Source: a virus
Taxonomy: Duplodnaviria; Heunggongvirae; Uroviricota; Caudoviricetes
DNA: 64,000 nucleotides
Reading direction: 5' to 3' (one strand)
Virus record (IMG/VR): IMGVR_UViG_3300032167_000010
Shown here one piece after another: positions 8,115 through 55,655 of the stretch. Numbering within the stretch: position 1 is the stretch's first letter; each line of letters starts with the position of its first letter. Made by a program: the position numbers and the translations under genes. The notes beneath the pieces were generated by a model. It saw nothing but the letters and a program-made list of their open reading frames with translations, ran no database searches and had not been told where the DNA came from.

Positions 8115-8123
8115 GCTAAATTA
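8115..8123 (+). promoter_or_regulatory. Late-type promoter GCTAAATTA
   Basis: Same 9-mer precedes the portal-proximal, protease, neck, sheath and tail operons. Confidence 0.7.
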
Positions 8124-8168
8124 ATTAGATTATTTTATAAGTATAAAAAATTAAAGGAGAATTAATAA

Positions 8169-9212
8169 ATGGCTAGTATTTTTACCACACCAGAAATGCA
8201 AGCAGCAGCAAAGTCTTTTATGCACGATGTAATGGTTGCTGCAGGTGTTCGTGGTTCACAACGTCAGAATTCGACTCGTGTTTTTACGTATCCTGAAGAA
8301 GTTAAAGCATCACAAGCAATTTCTGACGAACTTATAAATAGAGAGTTTAAAGATATTGATAGCAGCATTAATCGATTATCTGGTGAAAGCTTCCAAGCTA
8401 CGTTAAATGGTGGAGGTTGGAAACGTTTCAAAGTAGAAGCTATAGCAAAAGCTATTGTTTATATGGCTGAGCTTCTTAATCTATACTGGGATGACACTAT
8501 TAGAACACCCTATGAAATAGATGAATTTAAGAAAACTGTTTTAGGTATAATGGTATACAAATATGGCAGATATATTTCTGCTGTTAAAGATCCAAAAGCT
8601 CCAAAAACTAAAACTACCAGTAGCTCAAATACTGGAAATGCTACTACTGGTACTGTTAAATCAGCACCTCAAAATGGGTATAAGTCTTCAGGTCCTCAAT
8701 CAGGAAATGTCAGAGATTTACAAGATGTTAGTGGTGGTGCTGGTACTCCTGGCCAAAAGGTTATGGCTGGTGGCAGTTTAATTTATAAAATTATTGCAGA
8801 TAAAGTTGGTAAAAATACTCCTAACGTATTTATTAAACCTTTAAGTGCTTCCGGCGAAACTAATGGTACTAATAAAATTTTTATTAGTAGCGGTAATGGT
8901 TATACAGACTGCACTTGCTATTTTGATGATCCTAACAGTGCTCAAGCATTCTTAGATAAAATTGTTCAAAATAATCGAGTTCCTGCAAATATAGTTAACT
9001 TACGTGTCGTTAAAATGACAGCCGACCCTAACGGTTATTTCCTTGTAGGTACTGAATTTGGTACTGTAGCAGTTAGTGCAAAGACATTAAATGAAGCCTT
9101 AACTGAGGCTGCAAAATTAACAGAAGAAAGGGGCGAATGCTGGGAAAAGGCCACTAAAGATTACACTAAAGAAGAACTTAGAGAGCTCCACGACTGGATG
9201 CGTAGAGACTAA
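8169..9212 (+). CDS. Hypothetical putative virion protein
   Basis: First gene after the late motif; C-terminal TLNEALTEAAKLTEE. Confidence 0.75.
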   Translation: MASIFTTPEMQAAAKSFMHDVMVAAGVRGSQRQNSTRVFTYPEEVKASQAISDELINREFKDIDSSINRLSGESFQATLNGGGWKRFKVEAIAKAIVYMAELLNLYWDDTIRTPYEIDEFKKTVLGIMVYKYGRYISAVKDPKAPKTKTTSSSNTGNATTGTVKSAPQNGYKSSGPQSGNVRDLQDVSGGAGTPGQKVMAGGSLIYKIIADKVGKNTPNVFIKPLSASGETNGTNKIFISSGNGYTDCTCYFDDPNSAQAFLDKIVQNNRVPANIVNLRVVKMTADPNGYFLVGTEFGTVAVSAKTLNEALTEAAKLTEERGECWEKATKDYTKEELRELHDWMRRD

Positions 9213-9234
9213 TTCGGAGGATAGGAAGTTTATT

Positions 9235-10659
9235 ATGAAAATAAAAAAACAAAATTTAAATGAAAGCGCACTTACAAAAGAAATTGAACTTTTAGAAGAC
9301 GCTGTTGAAACAGAAGAAACATCTGCTGAATCTACTGAAGATATGGTTATTGATGACGTTGTAGATGCTTCAATAGATGAAATTGCTACAGCTATAAAAG
9401 ATGCTGCTAAAGAAGCTTCTGATGGTAAAGAAACTTATTCTGATGTAAATGCTAAAAAAATTGCTAATGAAATTAAAACTTACGCAAGCGGTTTTGACGC
9501 TGCAGCTTGGGCCCCAGTAGATGTAAAAAGCGAATTTACTGATATGTTAGATGATTGCCTTGCTAATGCTTTAGTAGCTCATTCATCAGGTACACACGAT
9601 GGCGTAGATTTACTTGTTTGCGGATTACCTGGTTCTGGTAAAACTGGAATATTTAAGGAATGGGCAAAATCACGTGGCGTGAATGATTTCTATTTAAATG
9701 CAAAAAATGATGACCTTGGTGCTATTCTTAACGGTTTCCCAATTAGCACTACTGAAACTGATGCGGACGGTAATACTGTGCATGTAGTTGACCGTGCATT
9801 TTCTAAGGCACTTAACAAATTAGACCGTGAACGTTCAGTATTATTCTTAGATGAATTTAATCGTGCTGCACCAAAACTTCGTGCTACATTATTGACACTA
9901 ATAAATGAACACAAAGTAGAAGGTAAAGATAAAGATGGTTTTAGACGCTTTGATAATTTATTATTTACTGTAGCATGTATTAACCCATCAGTTCCTACTG
10001 ACCCAGGTGCTATGGACTTAAACGATGCAGAAATGTCCCGTTTCGTAAATAAATTAGATTGGGATTCTAAGCCTGACGAAGCTATTAAGTATACAAATTT
10101 CTACTTAAATAAATTAATAAAAGAGCTTGACCCAAATAGTCCTAACTATGCCTTTATGTATATTCGTTATACAAAAATCTTAAATCTTGCTAGAGCTCTT
10201 TTAACTGATTACCGTTTTGAATTTGACAAACGTGATGACTTACTTGACTTATTCAATGAAAAAGCTACAATGCTTAACCAACGTGCATTAACTGATGCAC
10301 TTATGTCCCACGGATACAGTAAACAAAAGTTCTTAAATTGGGTAGATAAATATTCAGGTTTCCTTGATAAAGACAAACAAAATATTCACGACATTTTAGA
10401 TTCTTGGGATGAGCCTGATGTAAAAGTCCCAACAGCCGGTGATGAAACCGCTGCTACTGACACTTCAGACGCTTCGGATACTTCAGTTACAACAAATAAT
10501 ACTACTGATAGTGATGATTTTGACAGCGTATTTGGAACAGACGGTGATGAATCTGATACAGACTTATTCGGTAGCACAACATCAGCTGCTGGCCAAGCTG
10601 CAAAAGTAAGTGCGTCAGACGCTTTAAATCGTATTAAAGGCTTTGATTTTAGCCTATAA
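9235..10659 (+). CDS. MoxR/dynein-related AAA+ ATPase
   Basis: Walker A GLPGSGKT, Walker B LFLDEFNRA, sensor ACIN, EMSRF arginine-finger region. Confidence 0.9.
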   Translation: MKIKKQNLNESALTKEIELLEDAVETEETSAESTEDMVIDDVVDASIDEIATAIKDAAKEASDGKETYSDVNAKKIANEIKTYASGFDAAAWAPVDVKSEFTDMLDDCLANALVAHSSGTHDGVDLLVCGLPGSGKTGIFKEWAKSRGVNDFYLNAKNDDLGAILNGFPISTTETDADGNTVHVVDRAFSKALNKLDRERSVLFLDEFNRAAPKLRATLLTLINEHKVEGKDKDGFRRFDNLLFTVACINPSVPTDPGAMDLNDAEMSRFVNKLDWDSKPDEAIKYTNFYLNKLIKELDPNSPNYAFMYIRYTKILNLARALLTDYRFEFDKRDDLLDLFNEKATMLNQRALTDALMSHGYSKQKFLNWVDKYSGFLDKDKQNIHDILDSWDEPDVKVPTAGDETAATDTSDASDTSVTTNNTTDSDDFDSVFGTDGDESDTDLFGSTTSAAGQAAKVSASDALNRIKGFDFSL

Positions 10660-10685
10660 TAACTTTAAATTAAGGAGATTATACT

Positions 10686-11864
10686 ATGCAAATAAATAGA
10701 GCATTGCTTGAGTCTTCTGATATTACTAGGCACTTTATGACTGACAGAGAACGAAAAGTTAAAAAAGCTCTCTGTCAGCTTTTAATAGACAGAGGTCATA
10801 GAAAATACGCAGAACGCTTTTGGAAGCTAGATTTTAATATTATAGACTCTAAAAAGCATCCTGATTTTACTGCAGCTATATCTTTTGATGACGCAACAGT
10901 GTTTATCAGTGATGGGTTTCTTGGTGGTGGACAAGGTATTTTTAATCAGCTAGATGTTTTACTACGCCACGAAATGGCACATAATTTAATGATGCATCAG
11001 ATTAGATTAATGCACATATTTAAGAAATTACACGCAAATGACCCAGATGAGGCCTATGAACGTATTAAATATAGTTCTAGTCTTCATACCCTTTTAAATA
11101 TTATAGAAGATTTTGAAATTTCTAATAAACGATATACCGCTGCAGATAAAGATGTTGTAAGAAAAATGCAGCTGAATGGTAAGGTTATTGGTGGCTTAGT
11201 TACTGAAGATCATCGTGGCTGGGACAAAATGCCTTTAGAACAAATGTATGACGAGCTTTCTAAAGAGTTAATTAGAATTAATAGTGAAATTAGAAGTGAT
11301 CCTTACTGGCAACCGAAGTCAAAATTTGCTAATAATAAACAAATATATGATCAAATTGAGATAGTTGGCAGTGGAAGTACGCGTGATACTGGTGCTATTG
11401 CAGCATATAGAGATTATATGCGTCCTTCTGGTATAAAGGCTCCTATTGACTTTTTTATGAAGTCTAGTATTTATAAAAACTGGCCAGAAACATTTAAAAA
11501 GCTAATAACCAACATTTATGAAGGATTAAAGAATTTAACGTCAGATGCTGAAAAACAATCTATATTAGATATTGTAAAAGCTATTTCTGAGACAAGTCCA
11601 CAAGAAACTTTTGATATAGTTCATCCTATTAATGGTAATATAATTAGTACTTTATATACTCCAGAAGACAAAATGATTATCATGGATGTGCTAAAAAACT
11701 TAGTTGGCAATATAAATTATAATCCGTTAAAATTTAATATTAAGCGTAAGAAAAATTCTCAAGAATACAAAGATGCTTGGAATAAAGTAATGAAACAATT
11801 AGATTCAAGTAAATTTGACGATGAGACTTTAGCACAAATTCAAGCAGCTATTGCTAACGCATAG
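10686..11864 (+). CDS. Zincin-like metallopeptidase (MoxR-partner, DUF2201 N-terminal-like)
   Basis: LLRHEMAH followed by LNIIEDFEI; adjacent to the AAA and VWA genes. Confidence 0.7.
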   Translation: MQINRALLESSDITRHFMTDRERKVKKALCQLLIDRGHRKYAERFWKLDFNIIDSKKHPDFTAAISFDDATVFISDGFLGGGQGIFNQLDVLLRHEMAHNLMMHQIRLMHIFKKLHANDPDEAYERIKYSSSLHTLLNIIEDFEISNKRYTAADKDVVRKMQLNGKVIGGLVTEDHRGWDKMPLEQMYDELSKELIRINSEIRSDPYWQPKSKFANNKQIYDQIEIVGSGSTRDTGAIAAYRDYMRPSGIKAPIDFFMKSSIYKNWPETFKKLITNIYEGLKNLTSDAEKQSILDIVKAISETSPQETFDIVHPINGNIISTLYTPEDKMIIMDVLKNLVGNINYNPLKFNIKRKKNSQEYKDAWNKVMKQLDSSKFDDETLAQIQAAIANA

Positions 11865-11883
11865 TACTGAGAGGCGAATAATT

Positions 11884-13755
11884 ATGGATATAAATAAAAT
11901 TTTACAGGATCTTGGGTTAAATCTTTCAAATCCTGATGCGAAAAAAGGCGCTACTGAGGCTATACAAGCAATTTTGCAGTCTAGAATACCTATGGGTGGT
12001 TTAGGAGGTATGACACCTCCTGGCGGTGAAGTTGATGTTGAAATTGACCCAGATTTAATTCAACCCTCAGATAAACAGCCTTCTAGCGCAGACGACGATA
12101 TAGACGCAGAAATAAACGATGAAGAAAACATCTTAGATCAAGTAAAACGTAATAAGTCAGAAGAGGATTCTGGCGATACTACAAATAACGACTCTGGTAG
12201 TAATTCTTCAGACAGCGACTCCTCTGATGATTCTTCTGATAATAAATCTTCTAATACTAATGATGAGTCTTCAAACAGTTCTAAAAAAGCAGATGATGCT
12301 AAAAAAGACGACATAGACACTAAAGATAGCAATGATACTAGTTCTGACATAGAAGAAATTGCTGATGATGACAAAGAAAGCGTCGGCAGTGAAGAAGATG
12401 AATCAGAAGAAGACCTAGAAGATGATAATTTTTACGATGACGATTCTAAAGAAATTGATGCCAATGAAAATCCAGAGGATGAAGAGGAGTTAGAAGGTGA
12501 AGATGATTCTAGCGATGATTTTGATGAAGATGACTTCGAAGATGAAGAAGCTGAGGAAGACGACTTCGATGATGAAATCGAATCTGACTCTGATGTAGGT
12601 TCTGAAGGAGACTCTGGAGATTCTGATTTTGATGAAGAAGACTTAGAAGACGAAGAAGCTGACTTTAATGATGATTTTGATGAAGATGATTTAATTGATG
12701 ACTCTCTTAAAGATATTGAAGATGCTGAAATAAAAACAAAAGCTAATGCTCGTAAAATTAAACGTGAACGTACTCTAACGGCCGCTAAAAATACTCTAGA
12801 CGCCGCTAAGGCAAGAAATGCAGCACCTGCTTTAGTAAGAGAACTTGAAAAAGCTATAGAAGCTCTTGAAGCTTTGACAGAGGCAGTTAAACCTAAAAAT
12901 ATTAAAGATGTTTCAGATGAAGAGTTTAATTTACTAGTTAACCGTGTTTTTGATGCTATTGATGCATTAGGTGATAAAAGCTTAACTTTTACTACTGATG
13001 AGGAACGTCAGCTTAAGGCAAAAGAAATAAAAGCAGATATGGCTAGCTCTGAAACTCAGCATGAGCTTTCAGCGGAAGATGCTGCACTAATTCGTGACGA
13101 GCATCAAGCTACAAAAGCTAGAGATAAAGAAGCATCTAAATATCAAGCTAGAGGACGTAGCTCTTTTAAAGGCTTTCAAGACTTCTTAAATAGCCTATAT
13201 CGTGCTATTGCGCTTCAAGTAAGTACTGAAGAAGAACGAAATGACTCTTGGTCTGCTATAAGTCGTAGAAATAGTGGAGCAGGTGTAATACAACAAGGTA
13301 AACGTATCCAAGATTTAAATAATAAAAGAATTCCAGTGATAGATTTCTACTTTGACCAATCTGCCTCATGGGATGCTTCGGATATTAAAATTGGTGAAAA
13401 AGCCGTTTCTGCCCTTGCTGATATGGAAGCAGACGGTAAAATAAAAATAAATATATATTATTTTGCTAACCATGTGCATACTGATGCTTCGTCAGCTCGA
13501 GATGAAGGTGGTACAAGAGCTTGGAATGACATTGTTAAAAATATAGTTTCTACTAATGCAGCTAATGTAATTATTATGACAGATGATGATATGGAAAATT
13601 GGTGGGAACCTCAAAAGAAACCTCCATTAACCTACACAGTACCTGGGTATGTTTGGTATTTATGGAAAGATGGTTATAATGCCCCAAGATTACCGCGTGA
13701 TTTAAAAGGCAGAGGCGGAGTTCAACAATTCTCATTTAGTGCTAGTGATATATAA
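11884..13755 (+). CDS. VWA-domain protein with long acidic region
   Basis: MIDAS-like FYFDQSAS, GGT and IIMTDD at the C-terminus; roughly 200 aa D/E/S-rich tract; ATG at 11884 preferred. Confidence 0.8.
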   Translation: MDINKILQDLGLNLSNPDAKKGATEAIQAILQSRIPMGGLGGMTPPGGEVDVEIDPDLIQPSDKQPSSADDDIDAEINDEENILDQVKRNKSEEDSGDTTNNDSGSNSSDSDSSDDSSDNKSSNTNDESSNSSKKADDAKKDDIDTKDSNDTSSDIEEIADDDKESVGSEEDESEEDLEDDNFYDDDSKEIDANENPEDEEELEGEDDSSDDFDEDDFEDEEAEEDDFDDEIESDSDVGSEGDSGDSDFDEEDLEDEEADFNDDFDEDDLIDDSLKDIEDAEIKTKANARKIKRERTLTAAKNTLDAAKARNAAPALVRELEKAIEALEALTEAVKPKNIKDVSDEEFNLLVNRVFDAIDALGDKSLTFTTDEERQLKAKEIKADMASSETQHELSAEDAALIRDEHQATKARDKEASKYQARGRSSFKGFQDFLNSLYRAIALQVSTEEERNDSWSAISRRNSGAGVIQQGKRIQDLNNKRIPVIDFYFDQSASWDASDIKIGEKAVSALADMEADGKIKINIYYFANHVHTDASSARDEGGTRAWNDIVKNIVSTNAANVIIMTDDDMENWWEPQKKPPLTYTVPGYVWYLWKDGYNAPRLPRDLKGRGGVQQFSFSASDI

Positions 13756-13768
13756 AAGGAATAATAAA

Positions 13769-14179
13769 ATGGAATATGAGTTAAAAGATAAATTACAAGT
13801 AACAAAAGAGTTTCTAAATGACCTTGAAGTAAAAAGCTGGCAAGAAATTGAGCATTTACAGAATCAAATAGTAAATATAGAAGCAACTAAAGAAAATCTT
13901 GAACTAATACAGCTTCTTAAAAATCTACTAACTAGCTATTATGTGTTTACTGGTGGCTTAGAAAATCTTAATGATAATACTAATAAACTGACTATAAATG
14001 AGCCTAAATCTATTGAGTCCATTAAACTCGAACCTGAAGCCACTTTTAGTGATGAATTTGTTACATCTGAGGTCGCTTTAGAACAAAATATGGACAGTAG
14101 TGAACCATTTGAATATTTTGTAGATTTTGATGAGCCTGTTGGCGAACCGCTAACAGACGAAGAACTTTATAATAATTAA
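13769..14179 (+). CDS. Hypothetical acidic protein
   Basis: SD AAAGGA before ATG at 13769. Confidence 0.75.
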   Translation: MEYELKDKLQVTKEFLNDLEVKSWQEIEHLQNQIVNIEATKENLELIQLLKNLLTSYYVFTGGLENLNDNTNKLTINEPKSIESIKLEPEATFSDEFVTSEVALEQNMDSSEPFEYFVDFDEPVGEPLTDEELYNN

Positions 14180-14229: not shown

Positions 14230-14238
14230 GCTAAATTA
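14230..14238 (+). promoter_or_regulatory. Late-type promoter GCTAAATTA
   Basis: Exact motif just after a terminator. Confidence 0.7.
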
Positions 14239-14327: not shown

Positions 14328-15062
14328 ATGACTCAAAATAAAAAAGCTTTTATTGAAGCTAAAAAAAGAAAAAACAAGAAACCCTATAGCTCAGTTACTT
14401 ATACTACTGGTGATGTTGCTTTAAATATTGGTAGGTTTAATCAGGCTTTTGGCACTACTGAGGGAAGTGAAGTCGGTATTGGTGGTGAAGGCTCTTTATG
14501 TGAAGCAAAGCGTTATGTGCGCAGATATTATATTCGTCCACAAAATATCTTCTGTTCAAATAAAGCAGAAATTCTTAAAGCATTAATTGAGCTTGATGAT
14601 GCTAACTGCTCTGTATATACTCTAAATAATCTTGGTGATGATAAAGACGTTAATAAGCTAATGACTAGTGATATTATATATTATTATGATGATGGCATTC
14701 TTTATGATAAAAATAAAGTAAAAGTTATGGACTATGATCTTTCTATTAAAAAAGAAGAAAATCGTAAGAAATTTGCTAATGTTGATAAAGCACCCGATAA
14801 AGAATTTAAAGCAGAATATGAAGATCGCATGACAGACGCTACTGAACTAGAAGAAGCTTTTAACTTAGATTTTGACGACGTTAATGTTTTTGGTGAAAAG
14901 CTAACCGAGGCTAAAGAACGTTTCTGTTGTATTTGTGGTGAGCCTATTGAGGGGTATGGAAATAATCCTGAGCCTTATATGTCTGCTGAGGAAGGTAAAT
15001 GTTGTGATGCCTGCAATCTTAGATTCGTTATTCCAGCTAGAATGGACATGATGGAGGATTAA
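14328..15062 (+). CDS. Hypothetical protein with C-terminal zinc finger
   Basis: CCICG...CCDAC; L-x-E motifs LCEA, LEEA, LTEA. Confidence 0.75.
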   Translation: MTQNKKAFIEAKKRKNKKPYSSVTYTTGDVALNIGRFNQAFGTTEGSEVGIGGEGSLCEAKRYVRRYYIRPQNIFCSNKAEILKALIELDDANCSVYTLNNLGDDKDVNKLMTSDIIYYYDDGILYDKNKVKVMDYDLSIKKEENRKKFANVDKAPDKEFKAEYEDRMTDATELEEAFNLDFDDVNVFGEKLTEAKERFCCICGEPIEGYGNNPEPYMSAEEGKCCDACNLRFVIPARMDMMED

Positions 15063-15065: not shown

Positions 15066-16478
15066 ATGTATAGCATCTATATACCCACTGTTGAAGATGT
15101 GGAAAAACTTCTTTCTGCGAAACTTAGCTATGACGCTGCTATTGCAAAAGGTCAAGCACACTACCATCAATGGACTTATAAAAACTTTAATCTGACTCCA
15201 TGGGGTATTGCTTTTAATATAAGTAAAAGTAAGTTTAACAAAAAAGCGGCACTTGGTAAAAATAATGGTCAAACAGAAGACGGACAAAGAGCTCTTGCAA
15301 TGCGTTATTTTATCGTAGCTGTTGCTATTGGTTGGCAAGAGCTTGTCGACCAATTAAAGCGTACAATAAAAAACTGGGGTGTTACTGAAGAGGTGTTTAA
15401 AGATGTTGCACTTACTACATGGCAAGACCCTATTATTATGCAAGCAATTTCGAAGGCTATAGAAAACGTACAAAATAGCGGTAAAATAAAACTCACAGAG
15501 GCAGTTGAAAAGCATAATACATTAAATTCTAAACTTTTTACAAAAGAAAAAGTTCTCAAAGATAAAGTTAGAGCTAAAATGCTCGAAATTGTTGATGAAT
15601 TTTTAGCTGACCTTAAAGAGCAAGATATTAAAATTAAAGTTGATGATATTTTATTAATCGGTTCAAATGCCAGCTACAATTATACTAAAGATAGCGATAT
15701 TGACCTTCATATCTTAACAAATGTAAAAGCAACTGACTATTCGTCAGAAGTTGCAAATGCTTTATATAGTGCTTATCGTTCGTTATTTAATAAAAACTTA
15801 GATATAGAATTTTTTGGTATCCCACTTGAAATTTTCGTAGAGACTGAAGATAGTACCAGAGTAAGTAACGGTATATATTCAGTAAAGAAAAATAAGTGGG
15901 TTAAAAAGCCTGAACAAGAAGAGATTCCTGATTATGATGCCAAAGCTTTAAATAAGCTAGTTGATGAATGGGAAGAAAAGTGTAAAAAACTTATTGCAGA
16001 TATAAAGGCTGACAGACTTAATGATGAGAAAAAAGTAGTTAAAATGCTTGAAAACATTTATGAAAAGCTCCGCAAAAAAGGTATTGCAAAAGGCGAATAT
16101 TCAATAGAAAATCTTGCATTTAAAGAGCTACGTAATAAAGGTTACTTAGACCAACTTAAAGACCATAAACATGAATTAATTTCTAAAAGACTTTCTCTTG
16201 AAGAAAAACTTGACAGACAGACTCGTCTAGATGTATACAATCAAATATCTAGAGCTGCTGGAACTCATCCTATTATTCAAGATAATGGAATGTTCTTTAT
16301 CTATAATATAAAGCCTTCTGAAATTAATTCAAAGGCTGCAGCACTCAAAAAGCTTCCTTGTGTTGCTGAAGTTATTGCCTATGAAAACGGCAAATATGAT
16401 TTTTCAAATATGCTTGACATTGCTATGAACAAAATGCCAAGTAAATACTATGATATTCGTGGTAAATTAAAAAATTAA
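15066..16478 (+). CDS. Pol-beta superfamily nucleotidyltransferase
   Basis: LLIGSNASYNYTKDSDIDLHI (hG[GS]...DxD) plus a third acidic strand LEIFVE; the domain starts after KLTEA. Confidence 0.85.
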   Translation: MYSIYIPTVEDVEKLLSAKLSYDAAIAKGQAHYHQWTYKNFNLTPWGIAFNISKSKFNKKAALGKNNGQTEDGQRALAMRYFIVAVAIGWQELVDQLKRTIKNWGVTEEVFKDVALTTWQDPIIMQAISKAIENVQNSGKIKLTEAVEKHNTLNSKLFTKEKVLKDKVRAKMLEIVDEFLADLKEQDIKIKVDDILLIGSNASYNYTKDSDIDLHILTNVKATDYSSEVANALYSAYRSLFNKNLDIEFFGIPLEIFVETEDSTRVSNGIYSVKKNKWVKKPEQEEIPDYDAKALNKLVDEWEEKCKKLIADIKADRLNDEKKVVKMLENIYEKLRKKGIAKGEYSIENLAFKELRNKGYLDQLKDHKHELISKRLSLEEKLDRQTRLDVYNQISRAAGTHPIIQDNGMFFIYNIKPSEINSKAAALKKLPCVAEVIAYENGKYDFSNMLDIAMNKMPSKYYDIRGKLKN

Positions 16479-16532: not shown

Positions 16533-16541
16533 GCTAAATTA
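16533..16541 (+). promoter_or_regulatory. Late-type promoter GCTAAATTA
   Basis: Exact motif after a terminator. Confidence 0.7.
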
Positions 16542-16575: not shown

Positions 16576-17511
16576 ATGAAAAAACAAAACCTACAAGAGC
16601 AGTGCCTACTTGAGCTGCTTAAACTCAATGAAGCAACTCGTACTCAACTTGTGGCGCAATCTAGAAACGTTGGCACGTATAAAAATCAAGAGCGCGGCAA
16701 AACTCGCATGGACCGCAAGAAATACTCTAAAATAGCTAATGCTGTTAAGAGCTATAATGAAATTAATATGAATCTGCTATTTAAACAGGATATTCTTCAA
16801 GTTAATATACCAGTCGTTGGTGAAACCGATGAGTATACTGTTACAATAAAAATTGAAGGTGTTGTTGCTGAGATTCAAAAAAATATTAAAAATAATGGTA
16901 ATAAACTTGAATTTAGAACTATTATTCAAGCGCTAACAAAAGTTTTTAATACTACTGACGTTTATGTAAGGTGCACTTGTCCAGATTTTAAATACAGATT
17001 TGCTCATTGGAACATTCTGAAAAATGTATCAGTAGATGACACAGCTAGCGACCCAGGTCCTGGTAAAGGGATAGCAAACCCTAATGATGATAAAGGACGC
17101 GGTTGTAAACATATTTTATTAGTATTAAGTAATGGAGCTTGGATGATGAAAGTTGCTTCAGTAATTCAAAACTACTGCCACTTCTTATCTGAGAAAAAGC
17201 CGGAAGCTTTCTTAAAATTAGTATTTCCTAAACTCTATGGCGTGCCTGCTGATGAAGCAGCTGATAACGATATCGTTGCAGATAATGAAGACCTTGAAAC
17301 AGGTAAAGACCTTATTGATATTGTGAATGAGTACGGTAAAAATAGAGGGCGCTTCAAAAAAGGTAGTAATAAAAATCCTATTACTAATACTGGCGGTAGA
17401 CAGAAAACAGAGCCACCTAAAGAAGAAGATGTCACTACGGAAGAAGCAGCAGAGGAAAAACCAGAAGCAGCCACACAAGAAGACAACGAGAATGATGAAA
17501 CAAAAAGCTAA
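16576..17511 (+). CDS. SWIM zinc-finger protein
   Basis: VRCTCPDF...CKH (CxC...CxH); ATG at 16576 with SD AAAGG. Confidence 0.75.
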   Translation: MKKQNLQEQCLLELLKLNEATRTQLVAQSRNVGTYKNQERGKTRMDRKKYSKIANAVKSYNEINMNLLFKQDILQVNIPVVGETDEYTVTIKIEGVVAEIQKNIKNNGNKLEFRTIIQALTKVFNTTDVYVRCTCPDFKYRFAHWNILKNVSVDDTASDPGPGKGIANPNDDKGRGCKHILLVLSNGAWMMKVASVIQNYCHFLSEKKPEAFLKLVFPKLYGVPADEAADNDIVADNEDLETGKDLIDIVNEYGKNRGRFKKGSNKNPITNTGGRQKTEPPKEEDVTTEEAAEEKPEAATQEDNENDETKS

Positions 17512-17568: not shown

Positions 17569-17577
17569 GCTAAATTA
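17569..17577 (+). promoter_or_regulatory. Late-type promoter GCTAAATTA
   Basis: Exact motif. Confidence 0.7.
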
Positions 17578-17674: not shown

Positions 17675-18445
17675 ATGGAAAACGCCATGACTAAGTTAGA
17701 TGGGCGTATGTATTATGTATACATGCATCAAAATACCGTAAATAAAAAACGTTATTTCGGCTTGACTTGCCAGAAGCCAGCTTATAGGTGGGGTAGGGGT
17801 AGCGCTTATAAAAATAATAAGCCTTTTTATGATGATATAGAAGCATTTGGCTGGGAAAATTTTACGCACGAAATAGTTGCTTCAGAACTAAGCAGAATAG
17901 CAGCAAAGCAACTTGAACAAAAGCTTATTGCAGAGTTTGACTCAACAAATCCTAAACTCGGCTACAATAAAACTATTGGAGGCGAGGGCCACTTGAAGTA
18001 TAAAACAGAAACGGAACGCTGCGAAGCACTGCGAGAACAAAAAAGACGTGGTAATCGTAAATTTATGCAAAACCCAGAACAGCAAGAAAAAGCACGTCGA
18101 TACTCAAAACAATACAGATTAGACAACAAAAACAACCAAAAGCTTGCGATAAATAACCCAGAAAAACGAAAACAGTATCAAGCAAAATTTTGGTCGGACC
18201 CTGCCCACAAAGAAAAGCACAGAGAAGCTCACAAAGCAAGTAATAAGCAACAGTACCGCGAAGTAGATGGTTTACGCTGTAAACTAAAAGCTCTGTATGA
18301 ACAATATCCTGCTTACTTCGCCAGTGAACAGGTCAACGCTGTGTTTGGTAAGAAAAATAGAAACTACCTAGTAAATTCAAAGAAAGTTCTGACAAAAATT
18401 TATTTAAGCATACAAACTCAGCTAGAAGACTCTGAACAAAAATAA
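17675..18445 (+). CDS. Free-standing GIY-YIG homing endonuclease-like protein
   Basis: YYVYMHQNTVNKKRYFGLT, R-W, E..LI and GYNKT motifs; basic C-terminus; SD AGGAG before ATG at 17675. Confidence 0.8.
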   Translation: MENAMTKLDGRMYYVYMHQNTVNKKRYFGLTCQKPAYRWGRGSAYKNNKPFYDDIEAFGWENFTHEIVASELSRIAAKQLEQKLIAEFDSTNPKLGYNKTIGGEGHLKYKTETERCEALREQKRRGNRKFMQNPEQQEKARRYSKQYRLDNKNNQKLAINNPEKRKQYQAKFWSDPAHKEKHREAHKASNKQQYREVDGLRCKLKALYEQYPAYFASEQVNAVFGKKNRNYLVNSKKVLTKIYLSIQTQLEDSEQK

Positions 18446-18496: not shown

Positions 18497-20542
18497 ATGA
18501 TATCAAACGAATTAAATTTAGAACAACTAAATAGTCTGTCTCCTGAAGAACGAGCTCTGGCCCTAGAGATACTAAAAGAAATATCACAAGAAGGCCAGTC
18601 TGCTTTATTAGATGACCTAAAATATTCAGACTTCGAAGAGATACCTGTCGATATAATGACATTTATTTCTGACGAGCGCTATCTTGGACGTGGCCTGTGG
18701 ATAAAGGATGAATTTACAAATGAGCGAAAATGCACAGTGTTCCCGTACTGGATTGAAAAACTAAAAGAAATTTTTCCTGATAATATAACGACTAGATATA
18801 ATACGGTTATTCTAACAGGCTCTATCGGTCTTGGTAAATCATTTATTGCAGTTGTATGTCAGTTATATTTATTATATAGAATGCTTTGTTTAAAAGACCC
18901 TTATACATATTATGGGTTGCAACCCATAGATAAGATCACGTTCTCAATGTTAAACGTAACTATTGAAGCAGCACAAGGCGTTGGCTGGGATAAAATGCAA
19001 CAGCTACTACAAAGCTCTGACTGGTTTATGGAACGAGGTAATATGAATGCTAGCCGAACAAACCCACAATGGCAACCGCCTAAAGGAATTGAGCTTGTAT
19101 TTGGTTCTAGTAATAGACACGTAGTTGGTCGTGCGCTATTTTCAAATTTCTCAGATGAAGTTAACTTTGGCGTTGGTAATAACGTAGAGAAACAGAAAGC
19201 TAAGCTTAAGAAAATGATTTCTCAGATCGACGCTCGTATGATTTCTCGTTTTGGTAAAGGTACCTACCTTCCAACGATGAACATCATCGCTTCTTCAAAA
19301 GATTCAGAACAAGCGTTTATGGAATCTTATATTGAAATGAAGCGACAAAATGAAAGTAAAACTACTCTTATTGTAGACGAACCGCAGTGGATTGTTAGAA
19401 ATGATAAAGGCTCGCCAGATGACCCTGGTAGCTTCTATGTCGCTGTTGGTAATAAATTCTTAGCACATGAGCTGCTTCCAGTAAACGCTACAGAAGAAGA
19501 AGTAAATGCCTATAGAGAAAAAGGCTATTATATGTTAAAAGTTCCTCCTATTTATCGAGAAGCTTTTGAAGATAATATCGACCTTGCTTTGACAGATAAC
19601 GCAGGTATTTCTACTTCAAGCTCTACTAAATATATTTCTGGTGTTAGACTAAATCAAATTAAAACCGATACTTATAAAAATCCATTTACTAAAGATATTA
19701 TTGAAGTTGGTAATAGTCCTGAGGATATTATGCAGTACTCTAATTTCTTTGACTTATCGAGAGTCACCCCGAGAGATATGGCAAGACCCTTGTTCATCCA
19801 TCTGGATATGTCGCTATCTGGGGACAAAACCGGTATTGCAGGCATATGGATAACGGGTAAAAGACCTCCACAGGCTGGAAGTAATGACCCGGGCAAAGAG
19901 CTTGAGTTTAAGCTCGCTTTCTCAGTATCTGTAAAAGCTCCAAAAGGATTCCAAGTAAGCTTTGAGAAAAATAGAAACTTTATACGCTGGTTACGAGACC
20001 GTGGCTTTGCGATTAAAGGAGTTTCGTCAGATACTTATCAATCTGCTCAGATTCAACAACAACTAAAAGCAGACGGTTTTAATACTAAGATACTTTCGGT
20101 TGACCGTGTAGACAGTACAACTAAGCAGTGCTTACCGTATGCTTTCTTTAAATCTGCTATCTATGAAAGACATTTGCAGATGTATAAAGATTGCACATTA
20201 CTAACAGAAGAAATTGTTAGTTTAGAAAGACTTTCTGATGGGCACATTGACCACCCGCAAAACTTTTCAAAAGACCAAGCCGACGCCGTCTGCGGTTCAT
20301 TATTTCTAGCGAGTGAGTTTGCTGAAGAATATTCGTATGACTATGGCGAAAACTTAGAGACTTCTTTAGAAGTAAACAGTGCTTCTGATGATTTTAAAAA
20401 GCAACAAATGATTGCGGACTTCCAAGAAGAGCTTACTAAAATATATAGTGAAATGTATATGGCTCAAGAAGCCTTAGACTATAAGAAAAAACAAGAATAT
20501 GAAACATACCAAGATATTATGAATGGTATTATTATTTTATAA
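18497..20542 (+). CDS. Terminase large subunit
   Basis: Walker A LTGSIGLGKS, Walker B FSDE, RNase H-like HLDMSLSGD, IDHP...KDQADA; directly upstream of the portal gene. Confidence 0.92.
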   Translation: MISNELNLEQLNSLSPEERALALEILKEISQEGQSALLDDLKYSDFEEIPVDIMTFISDERYLGRGLWIKDEFTNERKCTVFPYWIEKLKEIFPDNITTRYNTVILTGSIGLGKSFIAVVCQLYLLYRMLCLKDPYTYYGLQPIDKITFSMLNVTIEAAQGVGWDKMQQLLQSSDWFMERGNMNASRTNPQWQPPKGIELVFGSSNRHVVGRALFSNFSDEVNFGVGNNVEKQKAKLKKMISQIDARMISRFGKGTYLPTMNIIASSKDSEQAFMESYIEMKRQNESKTTLIVDEPQWIVRNDKGSPDDPGSFYVAVGNKFLAHELLPVNATEEEVNAYREKGYYMLKVPPIYREAFEDNIDLALTDNAGISTSSSTKYISGVRLNQIKTDTYKNPFTKDIIEVGNSPEDIMQYSNFFDLSRVTPRDMARPLFIHLDMSLSGDKTGIAGIWITGKRPPQAGSNDPGKELEFKLAFSVSVKAPKGFQVSFEKNRNFIRWLRDRGFAIKGVSSDTYQSAQIQQQLKADGFNTKILSVDRVDSTTKQCLPYAFFKSAIYERHLQMYKDCTLLTEEIVSLERLSDGHIDHPQNFSKDQADAVCGSLFLASEFAEEYSYDYGENLETSLEVNSASDDFKKQQMIADFQEELTKIYSEMYMAQEALDYKKKQEYETYQDIMNGIIIL

Positions 20543-20556
20543 GGAGACCATAGAAT

Positions 20557-23085: not shown

Positions 23086-23094
23086 GCTAAATTA
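23086..23094 (+). promoter_or_regulatory. Late-type promoter GCTAAATTA
   Basis: Exact motif. Confidence 0.7.
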
Positions 23095-23582: not shown

Positions 23583-23591
23583 GCTAAATTA
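23583..23591 (+). promoter_or_regulatory. Late-type promoter GCTAAATTA
   Basis: Upstream of the protease and capsid genes. Confidence 0.75.
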
Positions 23592-27009: not shown

Positions 27010-27018
27010 GCTAAATTA
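27010..27018 (+). promoter_or_regulatory. Late-type promoter GCTAAATTA
   Basis: Exact motif. Confidence 0.7.
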
Positions 27019-28082: not shown

Positions 28083-28091
28083 GCTAAATTA
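28083..28091 (+). promoter_or_regulatory. Late-type promoter GCTAAATTA
   Basis: Exact motif. Confidence 0.7.
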
Positions 28092-31192: not shown

Positions 31193-31705
31193 ATGTCTAA
31201 CAATATAAAAGACTATGGACTACTAATAAATGGCGATATTAAACTTCATCGCTCATGGTTTAAACAAATGGTAGCCCTTCATGGTATTAATTGTAAATAT
31301 AAAGCTCCTTTAAAGAATAAAGAATATGATATTTACGGCGATCTTCAAACAAGTTATAAACCTGAAATCGTAGTAGGTTGTTTATTTCAAGAACACCCAG
31401 ACCAAAAGTCTTTAAAGAAAGCTGGTTGGGTAGCAGAGCTTCAAGAAGGCTCTTCTATTATACATGTTCCTTATGATCTACCAGACCTTCAGGTTGGAGC
31501 ACTCTTTGATGTTCCCAGCGGACTTGACACTGGTAAAGATAGGACATTCCGTGTAATCAGCCTATCAAATATTATGATATATCCTGCTTCAATTGCTTGT
31601 GAAATAGCCCTTGAATATACATCAAACGATGAGCACCATTTAATTACGACTGCTCATGAACAAGAAGATATGCCACTACTTATTGATAGGGAGGACGATG
31701 ATTAA
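31193..31705 (+). CDS. Head closure/neck protein (gp14-like)
   Basis: Position and beta-rich sequence. Confidence 0.55.
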   Translation: MSNNIKDYGLLINGDIKLHRSWFKQMVALHGINCKYKAPLKNKEYDIYGDLQTSYKPEIVVGCLFQEHPDQKSLKKAGWVAELQEGSSIIHVPYDLPDLQVGALFDVPSGLDTGKDRTFRVISLSNIMIYPASIACEIALEYTSNDEHHLITTAHEQEDMPLLIDREDDD

Positions 31706-33181: not shown

Positions 33182-33193
33182 GGAGAATTGCTA

Positions 33194-33869: not shown

Positions 33870-33878
33870 GCTAAATTA
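33870..33878 (+). promoter_or_regulatory. Late-type promoter GCTAAATTA
   Basis: Upstream of the sheath gene. Confidence 0.75.
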
Positions 33879-36317: not shown

Positions 36318-36326
36318 GCTAAATTA
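36318..36326 (+). promoter_or_regulatory. Late-type promoter GCTAAATTA
   Basis: Exact motif. Confidence 0.7.
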
Positions 36327-46226: not shown

Positions 46227-46235
46227 GCTAAATTA
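46227..46235 (+). promoter_or_regulatory. Late-type promoter GCTAAATTA
   Basis: Exact motif within the accessory region. Confidence 0.65.
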
Positions 46236-46284: not shown

Positions 46285-46863
46285 ATGAATACACATTTTT
46301 TAGGAGTCCTTCAAGCCTTAGACAATATTACTGAAGGTGGGGCGGATTATCAAGAAAAATATAAACAATATATTATTGATCATAAAAGAAGAGTAAAGCA
46401 GTTCGCTGACTGGATGAAAGAAAATCTTCCTGAAGTTTTTTCTGATATAGATTATAACGTAGACATCGACGACTTCGACGAACTAATAAGAGAACACGAC
46501 GAGTCTAAATTTTCAGAAGAAGAATTTGAACCTTACGCTCAGAAGTTCTACGGCAAGCAAGATATTAATGGAAAGCCACTAGAGTATATTCCTGGCTGGG
46601 ACGAAGCTTGGAAGCATCACTGGATGAATAACGAACATCACCCAGAATATTGGTTAGGAAAAGATATGCCTTATATCTACATCTTAGAAATGATTTGTGA
46701 CTGGGGTTCGTTTGGACTTCAAGATGGAGACTATACAGAGTTAGTTGATTACTACTACGGCGAGGCTCGCGACGATGATGAGAAAAATCTTTCTGATAAT
46801 ACTAAGAAAATTATAGAAGAAATTCTTTCTAAAATAGAATCTAAGATAGGAGGTAATAATTAA
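46285..46863 (+). CDS. HD-superfamily phosphohydrolase (DUF5662-like)
   Basis: HKRRV, HDESKF, WKHHW..NEHHPEYW and EMICDW. Confidence 0.75.
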   Translation: MNTHFLGVLQALDNITEGGADYQEKYKQYIIDHKRRVKQFADWMKENLPEVFSDIDYNVDIDDFDELIREHDESKFSEEEFEPYAQKFYGKQDINGKPLEYIPGWDEAWKHHWMNNEHHPEYWLGKDMPYIYILEMICDWGSFGLQDGDYTELVDYYYGEARDDDEKNLSDNTKKIIEEILSKIESKIGGNN

Positions 46864-49767: not shown

Positions 49768-49776
49768 GCTAAATTA
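49768..49776 (+). promoter_or_regulatory. Late-type promoter GCTAAATTA
   Basis: Exact motif. Confidence 0.65.
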
Positions 49777-49877: not shown

Positions 49878-50660
49878 ATGAGAAGGCTTTATGAATGGAA
49901 GTATATGAATCCGCCTAATAACAATACGACTAATACTCAAACAAATAATTCTTCTACTAGGAATTATCCAGACCAGACAGCTAATTATAAAAAACTTCTT
50001 GCGCAGATTGATTCAGATAAAAAATATAAATATCACATTATGCTATTTACAGATAGAATCATTTCTTTAGACTTAAGTCCTAACTGCAGTCTGATGATAA
50101 AAATAGTTTTTAAACCCTATGTTCCTAATTACTTTGTGGAGATAGCTGGTAAAGATTATTACTGTAAGGACTACAGCGAAGTTCTTGACTTATTAGTAAG
50201 TAAGGGAATTATAAAAGATAAAAGTTTATATACGGCTTCTTCTTTAACCGAAGAACTTAGAGTTCCTTCTAAACTATATCACGCGACCTACAGACAGTTC
50301 TTAAACTCTATAAAGAAAAAAGGTTTAGGAAATACTAAAAGAAAGATGTGGAGCGATTCTAAGCCAGGAGTTGTCTATCTAGCTGATGATCCTTGGGTGG
50401 CGGAAAGTTATGCAGAGGAATCCGAATATATAGATTCTGTAGAAGACCCGGATGATTATTTAGATAATATAATTATTCTTGAGGTAGATGTTTCTAACCT
50501 AGATTCTTCTAAGTTATATATAGATGAAAATGTTATTCTAGACGACGGCGAACTAAATTCTACTTGGGAGTATCACGGAGTTATTCCTTGGGAAGTAATT
50601 AAAATTTTTAATTCTTCTATAGCGGAGGACTTCGAAGTTTATAATAATTTATGGAAATAA
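49878..50660 (+). CDS. ADP-ribosyltransferase-fold protein (Tpt1/KptA or HYE-like)
   Basis: LYHAT...SI...GL, VYLA, ILEVD and WEYHGVIP. Confidence 0.7.
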   Translation: MRRLYEWKYMNPPNNNTTNTQTNNSSTRNYPDQTANYKKLLAQIDSDKKYKYHIMLFTDRIISLDLSPNCSLMIKIVFKPYVPNYFVEIAGKDYYCKDYSEVLDLLVSKGIIKDKSLYTASSLTEELRVPSKLYHATYRQFLNSIKKKGLGNTKRKMWSDSKPGVVYLADDPWVAESYAEESEYIDSVEDPDDYLDNIIILEVDVSNLDSSKLYIDENVILDDGELNSTWEYHGVIPWEVIKIFNSSIAEDFEVYNNLWK

Positions 50661-54091: not shown

Positions 54092-54093
54092 TT

Positions 54094-54102
54094 GCTAAAT
54101 TA
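54094..54102 (+). promoter_or_regulatory. Late-type promoter GCTAAATTA
   Basis: Exact motif. Confidence 0.65.
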
Positions 54103-54131
54103 TATGACTAACTTAAATTAGGAGATATAGA

Positions 54132-55655
54132 ATGATTGAATATATTTATTTTGTAAAATGTCCCAACTGTGATGATGAACCTTTTAGTTTCTTCGACGCA
54201 GCTAAAGAATTTGCCTGTGGTTGTTTAAGTCAGAAACCTATCATCACTCAGGTTGAGGTTAATAGAAACGATTTCGGTGAGTGTACAGATTCGGCAGACC
54301 TCGGTACTGTTTGGTCTTGGGAAGATATGATGTCTGACACAGAAAAAGAACATTCAGATGAACCTTCACTTCTCACTAAAGATTTTTTAAATAGTATTAA
54401 TTCTGAAAATGATCCTGAATTCGATGCGCTTGATAATTCAGTAGAAGTAGAAGATGAGGATTTCCGTTTTCTTAATGATGAAGAACTTAATGAAGCTCTT
54501 GGCTTTACATTATCTAATGATAGAGAGTCTAAAGAGATCCTTCATATGTGCGAGTTTCTTGGATTAAAAAAAGTTACTGATTTAGAAGATTTCTTGAAAA
54601 GAGAATTTGATGTTACAAAACCCCTTTCTAAATCTGAGTGTTTAGAGTTACTCTTTGATTATAGATTAAAACTCGGTGACGACTATGACGGTCCAGTAAA
54701 TGATAGTAAATTTGAGAGCTGCTCTAGAAAGCCAATACCTGAGGGAATGACTATCGAACAACTCGTAGAAGAAATGGAAGAAAATGAAGACGAAGTAGAA
54801 TGCACTTGGTGTAATGAACTTTTTCCTAAAGATCAATGTCGCTATGAAGTAGACCTCGGATATCTATGTTCTAGATGCGAAGCTGCTATTAAGTCTCGTG
54901 GCGAAACTCTTACGTTTAGAGAAAACAATTATTGGGATTTCTTAGATGAAGAAAAAGAACCGGTTAAAGAATACATAGAAAGAGACCCTTTTGATCATCA
55001 CGACTCAGACTATAGTGATGAGGAAGCAGCAGATGCTTTAGCAGACGAGATTGACAGAGCTTGGGATTCTAGATACGACACAGCTGTTGATGATTTTTTC
55101 AATGAAGATTTCGATGATCCCGTATCAGAAGATGGGAAAGAAACCGAAGAATCTCTTTTTGATGAAGCAGAATCAGTAGAAGAAGTAGTAGATATCTTAG
55201 TTAAAGACGAAGAAGCAGCTATTGCTGCTTACGAAGAAGCAGCCGATAAAATAGAAGAGCTCACATCTGACGAAGATACTGAAGAAACTCAAGAAGTTCT
55301 TGACCACATTAAAGAAGAGGAAGAAGAACATATTGAGGAGCTTGAAGAGCTTCTTACTGAAGAATCTGAAGATCAAGATACTGATACTTTAGATGAACAT
55401 GTCAATGAAGAACATCCTGCTATTGAGTCTAATCAAAAATTAGACGGCATCGACAACGCAATGGTAGACTGTGAAGTTGCAGATGTTATTGCCCACAGTG
55501 AAGATGAAAAACCTGTTGACTGTAAAGGTAAAAAGAAACCTTTAGAAAAGCCTTTAACTGAAGCTGCTGCTATGATTGATTGCCCAGAGTGCGGCGCTAA
55601 GAAAGCTTTTGACAAAGAAACAGGTGTCTGTAACAACTGTGGATTTATAATTTAA
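54132..55655 (+). CDS. Acidic protein with zinc ribbons and a ferritin-like helical hairpin
   Basis: CPNC, CTWC/CSRC and CPEC/CNNC; DEEAAIAAYE...HIKEEEEEH. Confidence 0.65.
   Translation: MIEYIYFVKCPNCDDEPFSFFDAAKEFACGCLSQKPIITQVEVNRNDFGECTDSADLGTVWSWEDMMSDTEKEHSDEPSLLTKDFLNSINSENDPEFDALDNSVEVEDEDFRFLNDEELNEALGFTLSNDRESKEILHMCEFLGLKKVTDLEDFLKREFDVTKPLSKSECLELLFDYRLKLGDDYDGPVNDSKFESCSRKPIPEGMTIEQLVEEMEENEDEVECTWCNELFPKDQCRYEVDLGYLCSRCEAAIKSRGETLTFRENNYWDFLDEEKEPVKEYIERDPFDHHDSDYSDEEAADALADEIDRAWDSRYDTAVDDFFNEDFDDPVSEDGKETEESLFDEAESVEEVVDILVKDEEAAIAAYEEAADKIEELTSDEDTEETQEVLDHIKEEEEEHIEELEELLTEESEDQDTDTLDEHVNEEHPAIESNQKLDGIDNAMVDCEVADVIAHSEDEKPVDCKGKKKPLEKPLTEAAAMIDCPECGAKKAFDKETGVCNNCGFII

Follow-up and report, generated by a model that had tools for sequence, protein, structure and literature searches.

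The prohead protease gp21 of bacteriophage T4 matures the major capsid protein gp23 by a known cut at LTE65↓A66 (arrows mark observed or predicted cuts throughout). The T4 internal proteins (IPs) and Alt carry a capsid-targeting sequence of 10–20 residues that is trimmed by the same protease, and they are ejected with the DNA. The T4 late promoter TATAAATA is read by gp55, gp33, and the clamp. Among ATPase sets of the MoxR/VWA type, GvpN, CbbQ–CbbO, and RavA–ViaA serve their own clients as remodelling chaperones. In phages phiKZ, 201phi2-1, and SPN3US, ejection or inner-body proteins are cut after Glu by the prohead protease (PMC5694885), and the polyvalent proteins of phages and conjugative elements carry 2 to 15 effector domains per polypeptide (Iyer et al. 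2017, PMC5512222). Here, we analysed a 64,000-nucleotide stretch of a tailed-virus record (IMG/VR IMGVR_UViG_3300032167_000010; the whole stretch is called the window, and positions are counted from its first letter unless given as genome positions), in which a T4-type prohead protease is encoded near late genes for a MoxR-type ATPase and several other enzyme-like proteins. The late proteins encoded near the head genes carry T4-type cut sites at several times the expected number, which makes them candidate substrates of this protease.

The window comprises bases 10614–74613 of a 167.8-kb virus contig with 34% G+C, for which our own open reading frame (ORF) caller gave approximately 246 genes, nearly all on the plus strand; gene calls and operon classes in this study are those of our own simple caller and rules. 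On it lies the head, neck, and tail module of a myovirus lineage that is uncultured and has relatives of 200–233 kb. Pfam and PHROG matches identify a T4-type morphogenesis module with a gp20 portal, an S77 protease, a gp23 capsid protein, a head–tail adaptor, a gp15-like protein, sheath, gp19 tube, a T4 baseplate protein, and a tape measure. The closest isolates, Thornevirus (SP-15, LIS04) and vB_BceM-HSE3, are distant, with a capsid identity of 27–30%; these cultured phages (Bacillus phages SP-15 and vB_BceM-HSE3, Listeria phage LIS04) have capsid, protease, and SWIM genes in common with the lineage. A megablast search of 20 kb against isolated phages gave no match, tblastn gave distant Thornevirus and phiRSL1-type matches alone, and the literature held nothing usable on the virion proteomes of vB_BceM-HSE3 or SP-15. 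IMG/VR contains at least 67 related loci with capsid identities of 57–90%, several of which are 200–233-kb genomes. Two relatives were used for comparison, namely G3 (G003, IMGVR_UViG_3300021400_000048, loci L098–L109; capsid identity 75%) and G1 (G001, IMGVR_UViG_3300028591_000080, loci L086–L097; capsid identity 57%). Both read TGA as a sense codon and were analysed accordingly. In G3, opening TGA raises the coverage by ORFs of at least 150 residues from 54% (standard code) to 78%, with 390 in-frame TGA codons across 85 genes; in the TGA-reading relatives, the capsid gene has 0 in-frame TGA codons, and as many as 15 occur in late head-proximal genes. No such effect is seen in the genome of the window itself (ORF coverage 70% and 72%, respectively).

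The head genes on which the analysis turns are the following.

18497..22515, plus strand: large terminase (weak match) and T4 gp20-type portal (Portal_T4 1e-36), with their own extended −10 promoter at 18468 that is conserved in relatives.
23621..25561, plus strand: prohead protease (PF03420 Peptidase_S77, phrog_207) in fusion with a long tail that is acidic, coiled, and scaffold-like; MDLKNKKILE↓A at the N-terminus.
25615..26934, plus strand: gp23-type major capsid protein (Pfam Gp23 2e-27), with the predicted maturation site ...RWITE50↓SLSNEIGAS.

A first-pass annotation, made from the DNA letters alone, had pointed to a protease domain in the 23621 product, with T4 gp21 as the model, and the family searches bear this out: the protein scores 47.7 bits for PF03420 (cut-off 27) and also matches phrog_207 (5e-25). 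Its H77 and S132 align with H85 and S140 of T4 gp21 (numbering counted from the T4 sequence), which we take to be the catalytic His and Ser. By these matches, the 23621 protease is a member of the T4 gp21 family (S77) in which the predicted catalytic His and Ser are kept. Every relative with an ORF that spans the capsid site (47 aligned) retains [WFY][ILM][TS]E[SA] there, and the residues beyond it vary; WITE50↓S aligns with ...SFLTE65↓A66EIGG in the T4 record of gp23. Since this conserved ITE↓S stands at the place that matches T4 LTE65↓A66, a cut after Glu in L/I-x-E is predicted, and L/I-T/N-E↓S/A/G, with the cut following Glu, is the most likely target of the 23621 protease, as LTE↓A in gp23 is that of T4 gp21. 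Outside the window, a 192-residue ORF in a non-late region (genome 103536–104114, window coordinate 92923) has 38% identity to capsid residues 291–382 and is therefore a partial capsid paralogue.

To count such sites, genes were classed as late or non-late by their nearest upstream promoter or terminator, the late class being that of the motif GCTAAATTA, and each protein was shuffled. The test that the first-pass annotation had itself proposed, an enrichment of [LIV]xE[SA] in GCTAAATTA-driven proteins, came out negative: the broad motifs [LI]xE and [LIV]xE[SA] lie above shuffles in every class, by 1.21x and 1.44x in late proteins and by 1.18x and 1.34x in non-late proteins. Motif counts per protein are uninformative because the SNF2 helicase, the tape measure, and NrdD rank highest. 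The narrower site [LI][TN]E[SAG] does DISCRIMINATE between the classes, unlike the broad motif. Late proteins of this genome contain 21 such sites against 8.3 ± 2.8 expected, and non-late proteins 5 against 6.3–6.4; the corresponding figures are 22 against 7.3 and 9 against 8.4–8.8 in G1, and 29 against 8.7 and 7 against 8.1–8.2 in G3.

Within the late class, head-proximal proteins carry 11 sites in this genome (2.0 expected), 18 in G3 (2.9 expected), and 13 in G1 (1.9 expected). These counts are 5–7 times expectation and are reached by 0/400 shuffles in each genome. Tail, baseplate, and fibre proteins under the same promoter carry 6 against 5.4 (here), 2 against 1.1 (G3), and 1 against 1.6 (G1). 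The excess is modest in dispersed late genes (4 against 1.0 here, 9 against 4.8 in G3, and 8 against 3.7 in G1), including the window genes 46285, 49878, and 54132. When the four site positions were permuted, the true order was the most frequent of the 24 orderings among late proteins in each of the three genomes (summed count 72; median approximately 26), and it was unremarkable in the other proteins (21). A prior-free scan of the pooled head-proximal proteins returned LTE as the most over-represented tripeptide (34 against 10.0, p 2e-9), an excess that survives correction for 8000 tripeptide tests; LNE and ESL were also among the top six, and LTEA was second among tetrapeptides. An N-terminal [LI]xE[SAG] within 20 residues was found in 12/71 late and 6/114 non-late proteins (Fisher p 0.019; 2.6 expected from shuffles). 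The site-bearing proteins are not paralogues of one another.

T4 served as a control. Its prohead protease substrates gp67, gp68, gp21, gp22, gp23, and gp24 (list from PMC5694885) carry [LI]xE[SAG] at residues 4–19 or in many copies, such as the 8 sites in the 269 residues of gp22. The density is 1.5–5.9 sites per 100 residues in the substrates (3.3–5.9 in core and scaffold proteins) versus 0.3–2.4 in tail proteins. A shared N-terminal L-Y/F-E motif of several late proteins of the present phage was set aside, being not clearly class-specific. Three late proteins outside the window (genome 97458, 125915, and 126691) have similar leaders, MNFNDVYSTLETLYEA, MNNLWSTFLELDALYED, and MNFNSVFEELSSLYEE, which may represent a second kind of shared N-terminal signal.

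The candidate proteins encoded beside the head genes are listed below, together with 13769, the remaining member of their first operon. A short N-terminal leader that ends in a predicted protease site is present in 9235, 10686, 14328, 16576, 23621, 27055, 31705, and 46285.

8169..9212, plus strand: 347-residue protein of unassigned family (no Pfam or PHROG match); C-terminal TLNE↓ALTE↓A, conserved in 7 orthologues.
9235..10659, plus strand: MoxR-type AAA+ ATPase (Pfam AAA_3: 32.2 bits, cut-off 27); an acidic tract comes after the leader MKIKKQNLNE↓S.
10686..11864, plus strand: HExxH (zincin-like) protein; leader MQINRALLE↓S; H95, E96, and H99 invariant in 8 orthologues.
11884..13755, plus strand: VWA (DUF2201/CoxE-like) protein with an acidic tract of approximately 250 residues and a C-terminal VWA domain; ALTE↓A at residue 331, conserved in close relatives.
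13769..14179, plus strand: 136-residue protein, last gene of operon 8169–14179 (no Pfam or PHROG match).
14328..15062, plus strand: 244-residue protein; leader MTQNKKAFIE↓AKKRK; zinc-ribbon tail (CCICGE) immediately preceded by KLTE↓A.
15066..16478, plus strand: nucleotidyltransferase-like protein (weak NTP_transf_2 match: 20.8 bits, cut-off 21; phrog_36119 1e-32).
16576..17511, plus strand: SWIM zinc-finger protein with an invariant CxC...CxH; ...LLKLNE↓A between a variable leader and the conserved body.
27055..28008, plus strand: accessory protein, possibly ParB-like (DGHHR motif; no Pfam match); leader ...NNSLTE↓S.
28853..31162, plus strand: 769-residue protein of unassigned family; PLTE↓S and a C-terminal LITE↓SF.
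31705..32853, plus strand: 382-residue protein; conserved 8-residue leader MSQRLFE↓A before a variable region, with L-[FL]-E-[AS] in 5/6 orthologues.

The pentapeptides that the first-pass annotation had quoted as protease sites are each present in the protein named. The protein identities that it had proposed fared unevenly: the MoxR, VWA, and SWIM assignments and the ART (ADP-ribosyltransferase) fold of 49878 stand, the supposed peptidase shows an HExxH motif without a family match, the nucleotidyltransferase and ParB-like assignments are weak, the supposed HD protein matches DUF5662 alone, and the ferritin-like reading of 54132 found no Pfam or PHROG match. Pfam and PHROG gave nothing for 8169, 10686, 11884, 13769, 14328, 31705, 46863, or 54132, nor for 9/10 late genes tested outside the window.

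The leaders of 9235 and 10686 keep L-x-E-[SAG] in orthologues that share only 33–42% identity; the 9235 leader with its L-x-E-[SA] is kept in G3 and G1, and the N-terminal L-x-E-[SG] of 10686 persists at 33–35% identity. No Pfam or PDB match was obtained for 10686. Read from the sequence, 11884 has a motif resembling a metal-ion-dependent adhesion site (MIDAS), DQSAS...T...D, and its Atlas leads are VWA_CoxE and DUF2201 (features 0.91, structure TM 0.6–0.7), including viral DUF2201_N–DUF2201 metallopeptidase–VWA proteins. The AAA_3-type ATPase gene 9235 thus lies near a MIDAS-bearing VWA gene, the arrangement that defines a MoxR/VWA pair, and since the Atlas ties 11884 to DUF2201 metallopeptidase–VWA proteins, the 9235/10686/11884 triad is a known, widespread module, here split into three genes. 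As in RavA–ViaA, CbbQ–CbbO, GvpN, and the DUF2201_N/DUF2201 proteins, an AAA_3-type ATPase stands beside zincin-like and MIDAS-bearing VWA proteins. In contrast to those systems, zincin and VWA are encoded separately here, the VWA protein has its acidic tract of approximately 250 residues, all three proteins carry T4-type sites, and the genes lie in a late head-gene cluster.

Elsewhere in this group, the sites lie at the borders of conserved modules. In 15066, KLTE↓A is found exactly where homology to G1, G3, and phrog_36119 begins (residue 145), and this junction is conserved in 12 orthologues. The L-x-E of 16576 is kept in 14/15 aligned sequences, with F-T-E in the G1 lineage; the leader of the orthologues in G1 and G3 is 190–500 residues long and includes a NUDIX domain in G3. 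In Thornevirus, the homologues of 16576 are encoded between the neck and the sheath genes. As the gene precedes that of the large terminase, 16576 was considered as a possible small terminase, an idea that was set aside in view of these N-terminal additions and of the Thornevirus homologues among neck and tail genes. Alignment profiles of the SWIM and HExxH proteins (16576 and 10686) found nothing credible among PDB sequences, and the AlphaFold2 (AF2) model of 16576 (pLDDT, the model's confidence measure, of 58) was too poor for a structure search. The Atlas lead for 27055 is ParB_N/ParBc_2 (0.87, weak), and its PHROG match is one family of unknown function. Large multi-site forms occur in the relatives: the G3 orthologue of 14328 has 1212 residues and six xLTEAK-type sites, and the 28853 orthologues have 1217 and 1375 residues with 5–6 sites and keep the C-terminal ITESF.

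The late class is defined by GCTAAATTA, which had been described at 15 positions in the window. All 15 copies are exact and on the plus strand, 14 of them are intergenic, and one lies within a coding sequence, compared with 2.55 ± 1.67 (maximum 7) in shuffles.

8115..8123, plus strand: late promoter core (exact motif) heading the five-gene operon 8169–14179; upstream of the orthologue in 10/10 relatives.
14230..14238, plus strand: late promoter core heading 14328 and 15066; 10/10 relatives.
16533..16541, plus strand: late promoter core heading the SWIM protein gene; 28/28 relatives.
17569..17577, plus strand: late promoter core heading an inserted GIY-YIG endonuclease gene.
23086..23094, plus strand: late promoter core heading the 131-residue gene 23153; 11/11 relatives.
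23583..23591, plus strand: late promoter core heading the protease/scaffold and capsid genes; 27/30 relatives.
27010..27018, plus strand: late promoter core heading the possibly ParB-like gene 27055; this gene occurs in one related locus alone, with the motif there too.
28083..28091, plus strand: late promoter core heading the neck/connector operon 28122–33850; 24/24 relatives.
29564..29572, plus strand: GCTAAATTA copy within ORF 28853–31162 (769 residues), without the T-rich upstream context.
33870..33878, plus strand: late promoter core heading the sheath and tube genes; 14/14 relatives.
36318..36326, plus strand: late promoter core heading the baseplate and tape-measure operon; 10/10 relatives.
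46227..46235, plus strand: late promoter core heading the DUF5662 gene 46285 and gene 46863.
49768..49776, plus strand: late promoter core heading the ART-like gene 49878; motif also upstream of the homologue in L078.
54094..54102, plus strand: late promoter core heading the acidic zinc-ribbon protein gene 54132; motif also upstream of the homologue in L048.
57156..57164, plus strand: late promoter core heading nrdD; the G1 nrdD orthologue also directly follows a late motif.

Genome-wide, GCTAAATTA occurs 31 times on the plus strand and 2 times on the minus strand, and 29/31 copies are intergenic, though only approximately 9% of the genome is. The context is ttATttGCTAAATTAwwt, in which the 9-mer is invariant at 29 sites; the consensus of these sites has no −35-like block, and the distance from the motif's end to the start codon is 21–101 nt at 27/29 of them. 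In 1.03 Mb of related loci, the motif is found 252 times on the coding strand and 5 times on the other, and five whole related genomes hold 23–36 copies each on the coding strand against 1–6 on the other. Because it lies inside a coding sequence and is without the T-rich upstream context, the copy at 29564 is probably there by chance.

On the strength of these patterns, GCTAAATTA is the predicted core of the lineage's late promoter, which would switch on all late functions, namely virion parts, lysis, NrdD, and a homing endonuclease. Like the T4 late promoter, it is a short, strictly conserved AT-rich element that has no −35 box and lies 21–100 nt before late genes, including lysis genes; unlike it, GCTAAATTA differs in sequence and starts with GC. 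The first-pass annotation had stated that the motif heads both the structural operons and nonstructural genes. This is right for the head, neck, tail, and baseplate genes and for the NrdD and GIY-YIG endonuclease genes; the terminase–portal operon in relatives is preceded instead by a conserved extended −10 promoter, TGTATAATAT, of the ttattGTATAATAT class, and those genes may therefore start earlier than the other head genes. The further proposal that the promoter marks virion payload did not survive. As GCTAAATTA also heads the genes for NrdD, the GIY-YIG endonuclease, and, outside the window, an Amidase_2 endolysin, it is an ordinary late promoter rather than a marker of virion proteins.

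Two other promoter classes were recognized. A near-perfect host-type early promoter, AAAACAGTTTACAAA-N14-TGnTATAATAT, has 23 copies from window position 60029 on. The third class, ttattGTATAATAT, has an extended −10 and no −35 element; it is found at 18468 and at approximately 20 other sites (e.g., 5271, 47981, and 57068), often just past terminators, and the copy at 57068 gives nrdD an additional promoter. At 5260–5290, a late motif with one mismatch (GCTAAATTT) overlaps an extended −10 promoter before the deformylase-like gene 5317, whose G3 orthologue has an exact late motif. The 89-nt leader after the 14230 motif opens with a 16-bp G+C-rich hairpin (14239–14290; −24.7 kcal/mol, z −2.4), and the leader at 17578 is structured too. 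Rfam matched no family in the window.

The dispersed late genes and the late nonvirion genes of the window are as follows.

17675..18445, plus strand: GIY-YIG homing endonuclease (Pfam GIY-YIG 9e-5), a late-driven nonvirion gene.
46285..46863, plus strand: DUF5662 protein (Pfam DUF5662 3e-30); leader ...DNITE↓G.
49878..50660, plus strand: two-domain ART-like protein; SLTE↓E seven residues before the ART-superfamily domain.
54132..55655, plus strand: acidic zinc-ribbon protein without a family match; PLTE↓A before a C-terminal ribbon, a module shared with the 14328 family.
57210..59441, plus strand: anaerobic ribonucleotide reductase NrdD (Pfam NRDD 3e-179), a late-driven metabolic gene.

The C-terminal domain of 49878 (AF2 pLDDT 83) matches Tpt1/KptA in Foldseek (E 5e-4, probability 1.0), and also RES, DarT, pertussis S1, and Arr; as modelled, it is an ART-superfamily fold closest to Tpt1/KptA. 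H18, Y50, and E114 (domain numbering, from the alignment alone) are invariant in 29 homologues. Homologues of this domain are fused to ParBc, GNAT, NUDIX, and PF18760 ART-PolyVal, and contig L079 has one YINE↓SE site on either side of the domain. Between 49878–50660 and L078:9998–10738, the order of the domains is reversed, with the ART domain first in L078, and a C-terminal tail is shared (EDFEVYNNLWK and DEFKLYKNLWD, respectively). The G1 and G3 homologues of the DUF5662 protein start at the domain, without the leader and without the late motif. No counterpart of the GIY-YIG gene was found in the related loci or at that position in G1 and G3, and G1 encodes a 160-residue GIY-YIG homologue (29% identity) elsewhere in its genome. 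Together with its own late promoter and the preceding terminator (17512–18470), the gene is inserted between the SWIM and terminase genes, a gap that in relatives measures 27–60 nt or holds other inserts of 350–750 nt.

We hold, with slightly better than even confidence, that the head-proximal late proteins are prohead protease substrates and hence enter the prohead. The MoxR ATPase, the HExxH protein, the acidic VWA protein, the nucleotidyltransferase, the SWIM protein, the possibly ParB-like protein, and the 8169, 14328, 28853, and 31705 proteins would assemble into the prohead core, where the S77 protease would trim or dice them at a site that lies either in an N-terminal leader of 5–20 residues, like the T4 capsid-targeting sequence, or at the seam of a variable and a conserved module. 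Cleavage is itself inferred from these sequences, as are any stay of the products in the mature head and their passage into the host. A wider idea, which we regard as possible but on the unlikely side, is that the T4-type LTE↓A acts as a general "cut here" linker: enzymes recruited by leaders or as polyprotein modules would be diced and then ejected with the DNA as a takeover or antidefense kit that would include the MoxR AAA+/zincin/VWA machine, the nucleotidyltransferase, NUDIX, the ART-fold enzyme, and perhaps the ParB-like protein. The substrate reading is favoured because the excess is found in the head-linked and not the tail-linked products of the same promoter, because the site equals the T4 capsid cut site, and because the sites sit in leaders and seams and not inside domains.

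Several points weigh against it. The broad motif and the counts per protein do not discriminate, and in this genome alone, LTE ranks only seventh (p 1e-3). The P2 position (T/N) was narrowed post hoc, after inspection of the data, a weakness softened by the T4 site and by the prior-free scan. Orthologous sites in the three genomes are not independent, so pooled p-values are inflated; the residue past the cut varies (A, S, G, D, or K) in some orthologues; and where a domain starts with a conserved L-x-E, the motif could simply belong to the fold. We know of no precedent for a MoxR–VWA–zincin set inside a capsid, and sets of this type are usually cytoplasmic remodelling chaperones. In one alternative, which we judge unlikely, a shared late regulon is all there is: MoxR, HExxH, and VWA proteins would together help to build heads as a chaperone of assembly or remodelling in the cytoplasm, the other enzymes would act late in the cell, nothing would be packaged, and L-T/N-E would represent helix caps or docking motifs. 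That the promoter also drives nonvirion genes (nrdD, endolysin, GIY-YIG) suits this explanation, MoxR with DUF2201/VWA and a metallopeptidase is a widespread phage and bacterial module, and a location beside head genes would suit a chaperone equally well. It leaves unexplained, however, why the T4 gp23 cut site is the top tripeptide in these proteins, why tail proteins under the same promoter lack the excess, and why short conserved N-terminal leaders end in L-x-E-S/A.

The sites could also be real and the proteins nonetheless not delivered. If they were parts of the prohead core or scaffold, they would be degraded by the protease and expelled, as are T4 gp22, gp67, and gp68. The long acidic tracts of 9235, 11884, and 54132 resemble scaffold or core proteins, and the multi-site orthologues of 28853 look like gp22; yet conserved enzyme cores (AAA+, HExxH, nucleotidyltransferase, and an ART fold with invariant H, Y, and E) would be odd in a disposable scaffold, and the sites flank the enzyme domains and do not cut through them. 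We find this distinctly improbable. Finally, the excess may be an artefact of the post hoc choice of motif, shared ancestry, and composition, as the negative bulk tests, the refinement of P2 after inspection, and the relatedness of the three genomes would allow. We consider this very unlikely in view of the permutation control, the contrast between head and tail proteins with 0/400 shuffles per genome, and the tripeptide scan that survives 8000-fold correction; moreover, many G1 and G3 sites lie in lineage-specific regions, and the site-bearing proteins are not related by duplication.

If the head-proximal proteins are indeed protease substrates, the closest parallel is that of the T4 IPs and Alt, with which the present set shares the S77 family, the type of cut site (LTE↓A versus ITE↓S), short leaders ending in L/I-x-E, dispersed late genes, and an ART-fold candidate. 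The candidate cargo differs, comprising MoxR AAA+, HExxH, VWA, nucleotidyltransferase, SWIM, and possibly ParB-like proteins; the sites also occur at module seams, no leader matches T4 MKTYQEFIAE, and the present set is known from sequence alone. As in phiKZ, 201phi2-1, and SPN3US, many head proteins, including enzymes, would be cut after Glu at a three-residue motif, and some propeptides would have multiple sites. The sites of those phages are of the A/S/G-x-E type, with long propeptides and a packaged virion RNA polymerase, whereas P3 is L/I here, as in T4, and the leaders are mostly short.

The comparison with polyvalent proteins concerns domain content. The repertoires overlap (ParB, GNAT, NUDIX, and ART-PolyVal fusions), the genes adjoin the portal and terminase genes, and the relatives hold multi-module proteins of 943–1375 residues, among whose domains NUDIX and ART alone were recognized. 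The window genes, in contrast, have 1–2 domains each, below the 2–15 that characterize polyvalent proteins, and their modules are mostly separate genes; processing is predicted to fall to the prohead protease, at LTE↓A seams, instead of an embedded metallopeptidase. Trimming of packaged proteins by gp21-type proteases is textbook knowledge for T4 and phiKZ-like phages. The novelty lies in the candidate cargo and in a T4-type site used as the seam of polyvalent-like proteins.

The contrast in motif frequency between head and tail proteins can be reused as a computational test wherever a phage encodes a gp21-type protease. If the proposed processing is true, AAA+/VWA machines and nucleotidyltransferases would join the possible phage-delivered proteins, and the prohead protease, rather than embedded peptidases, would appear to process polyvalent-type effectors, which would link polyvalent proteins mechanistically to head maturation. 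If the sites are real, a simple sequence rule would flag head-internal, possibly injected proteins in a large uncultured family of 200–230-kb rumen or gut phages.

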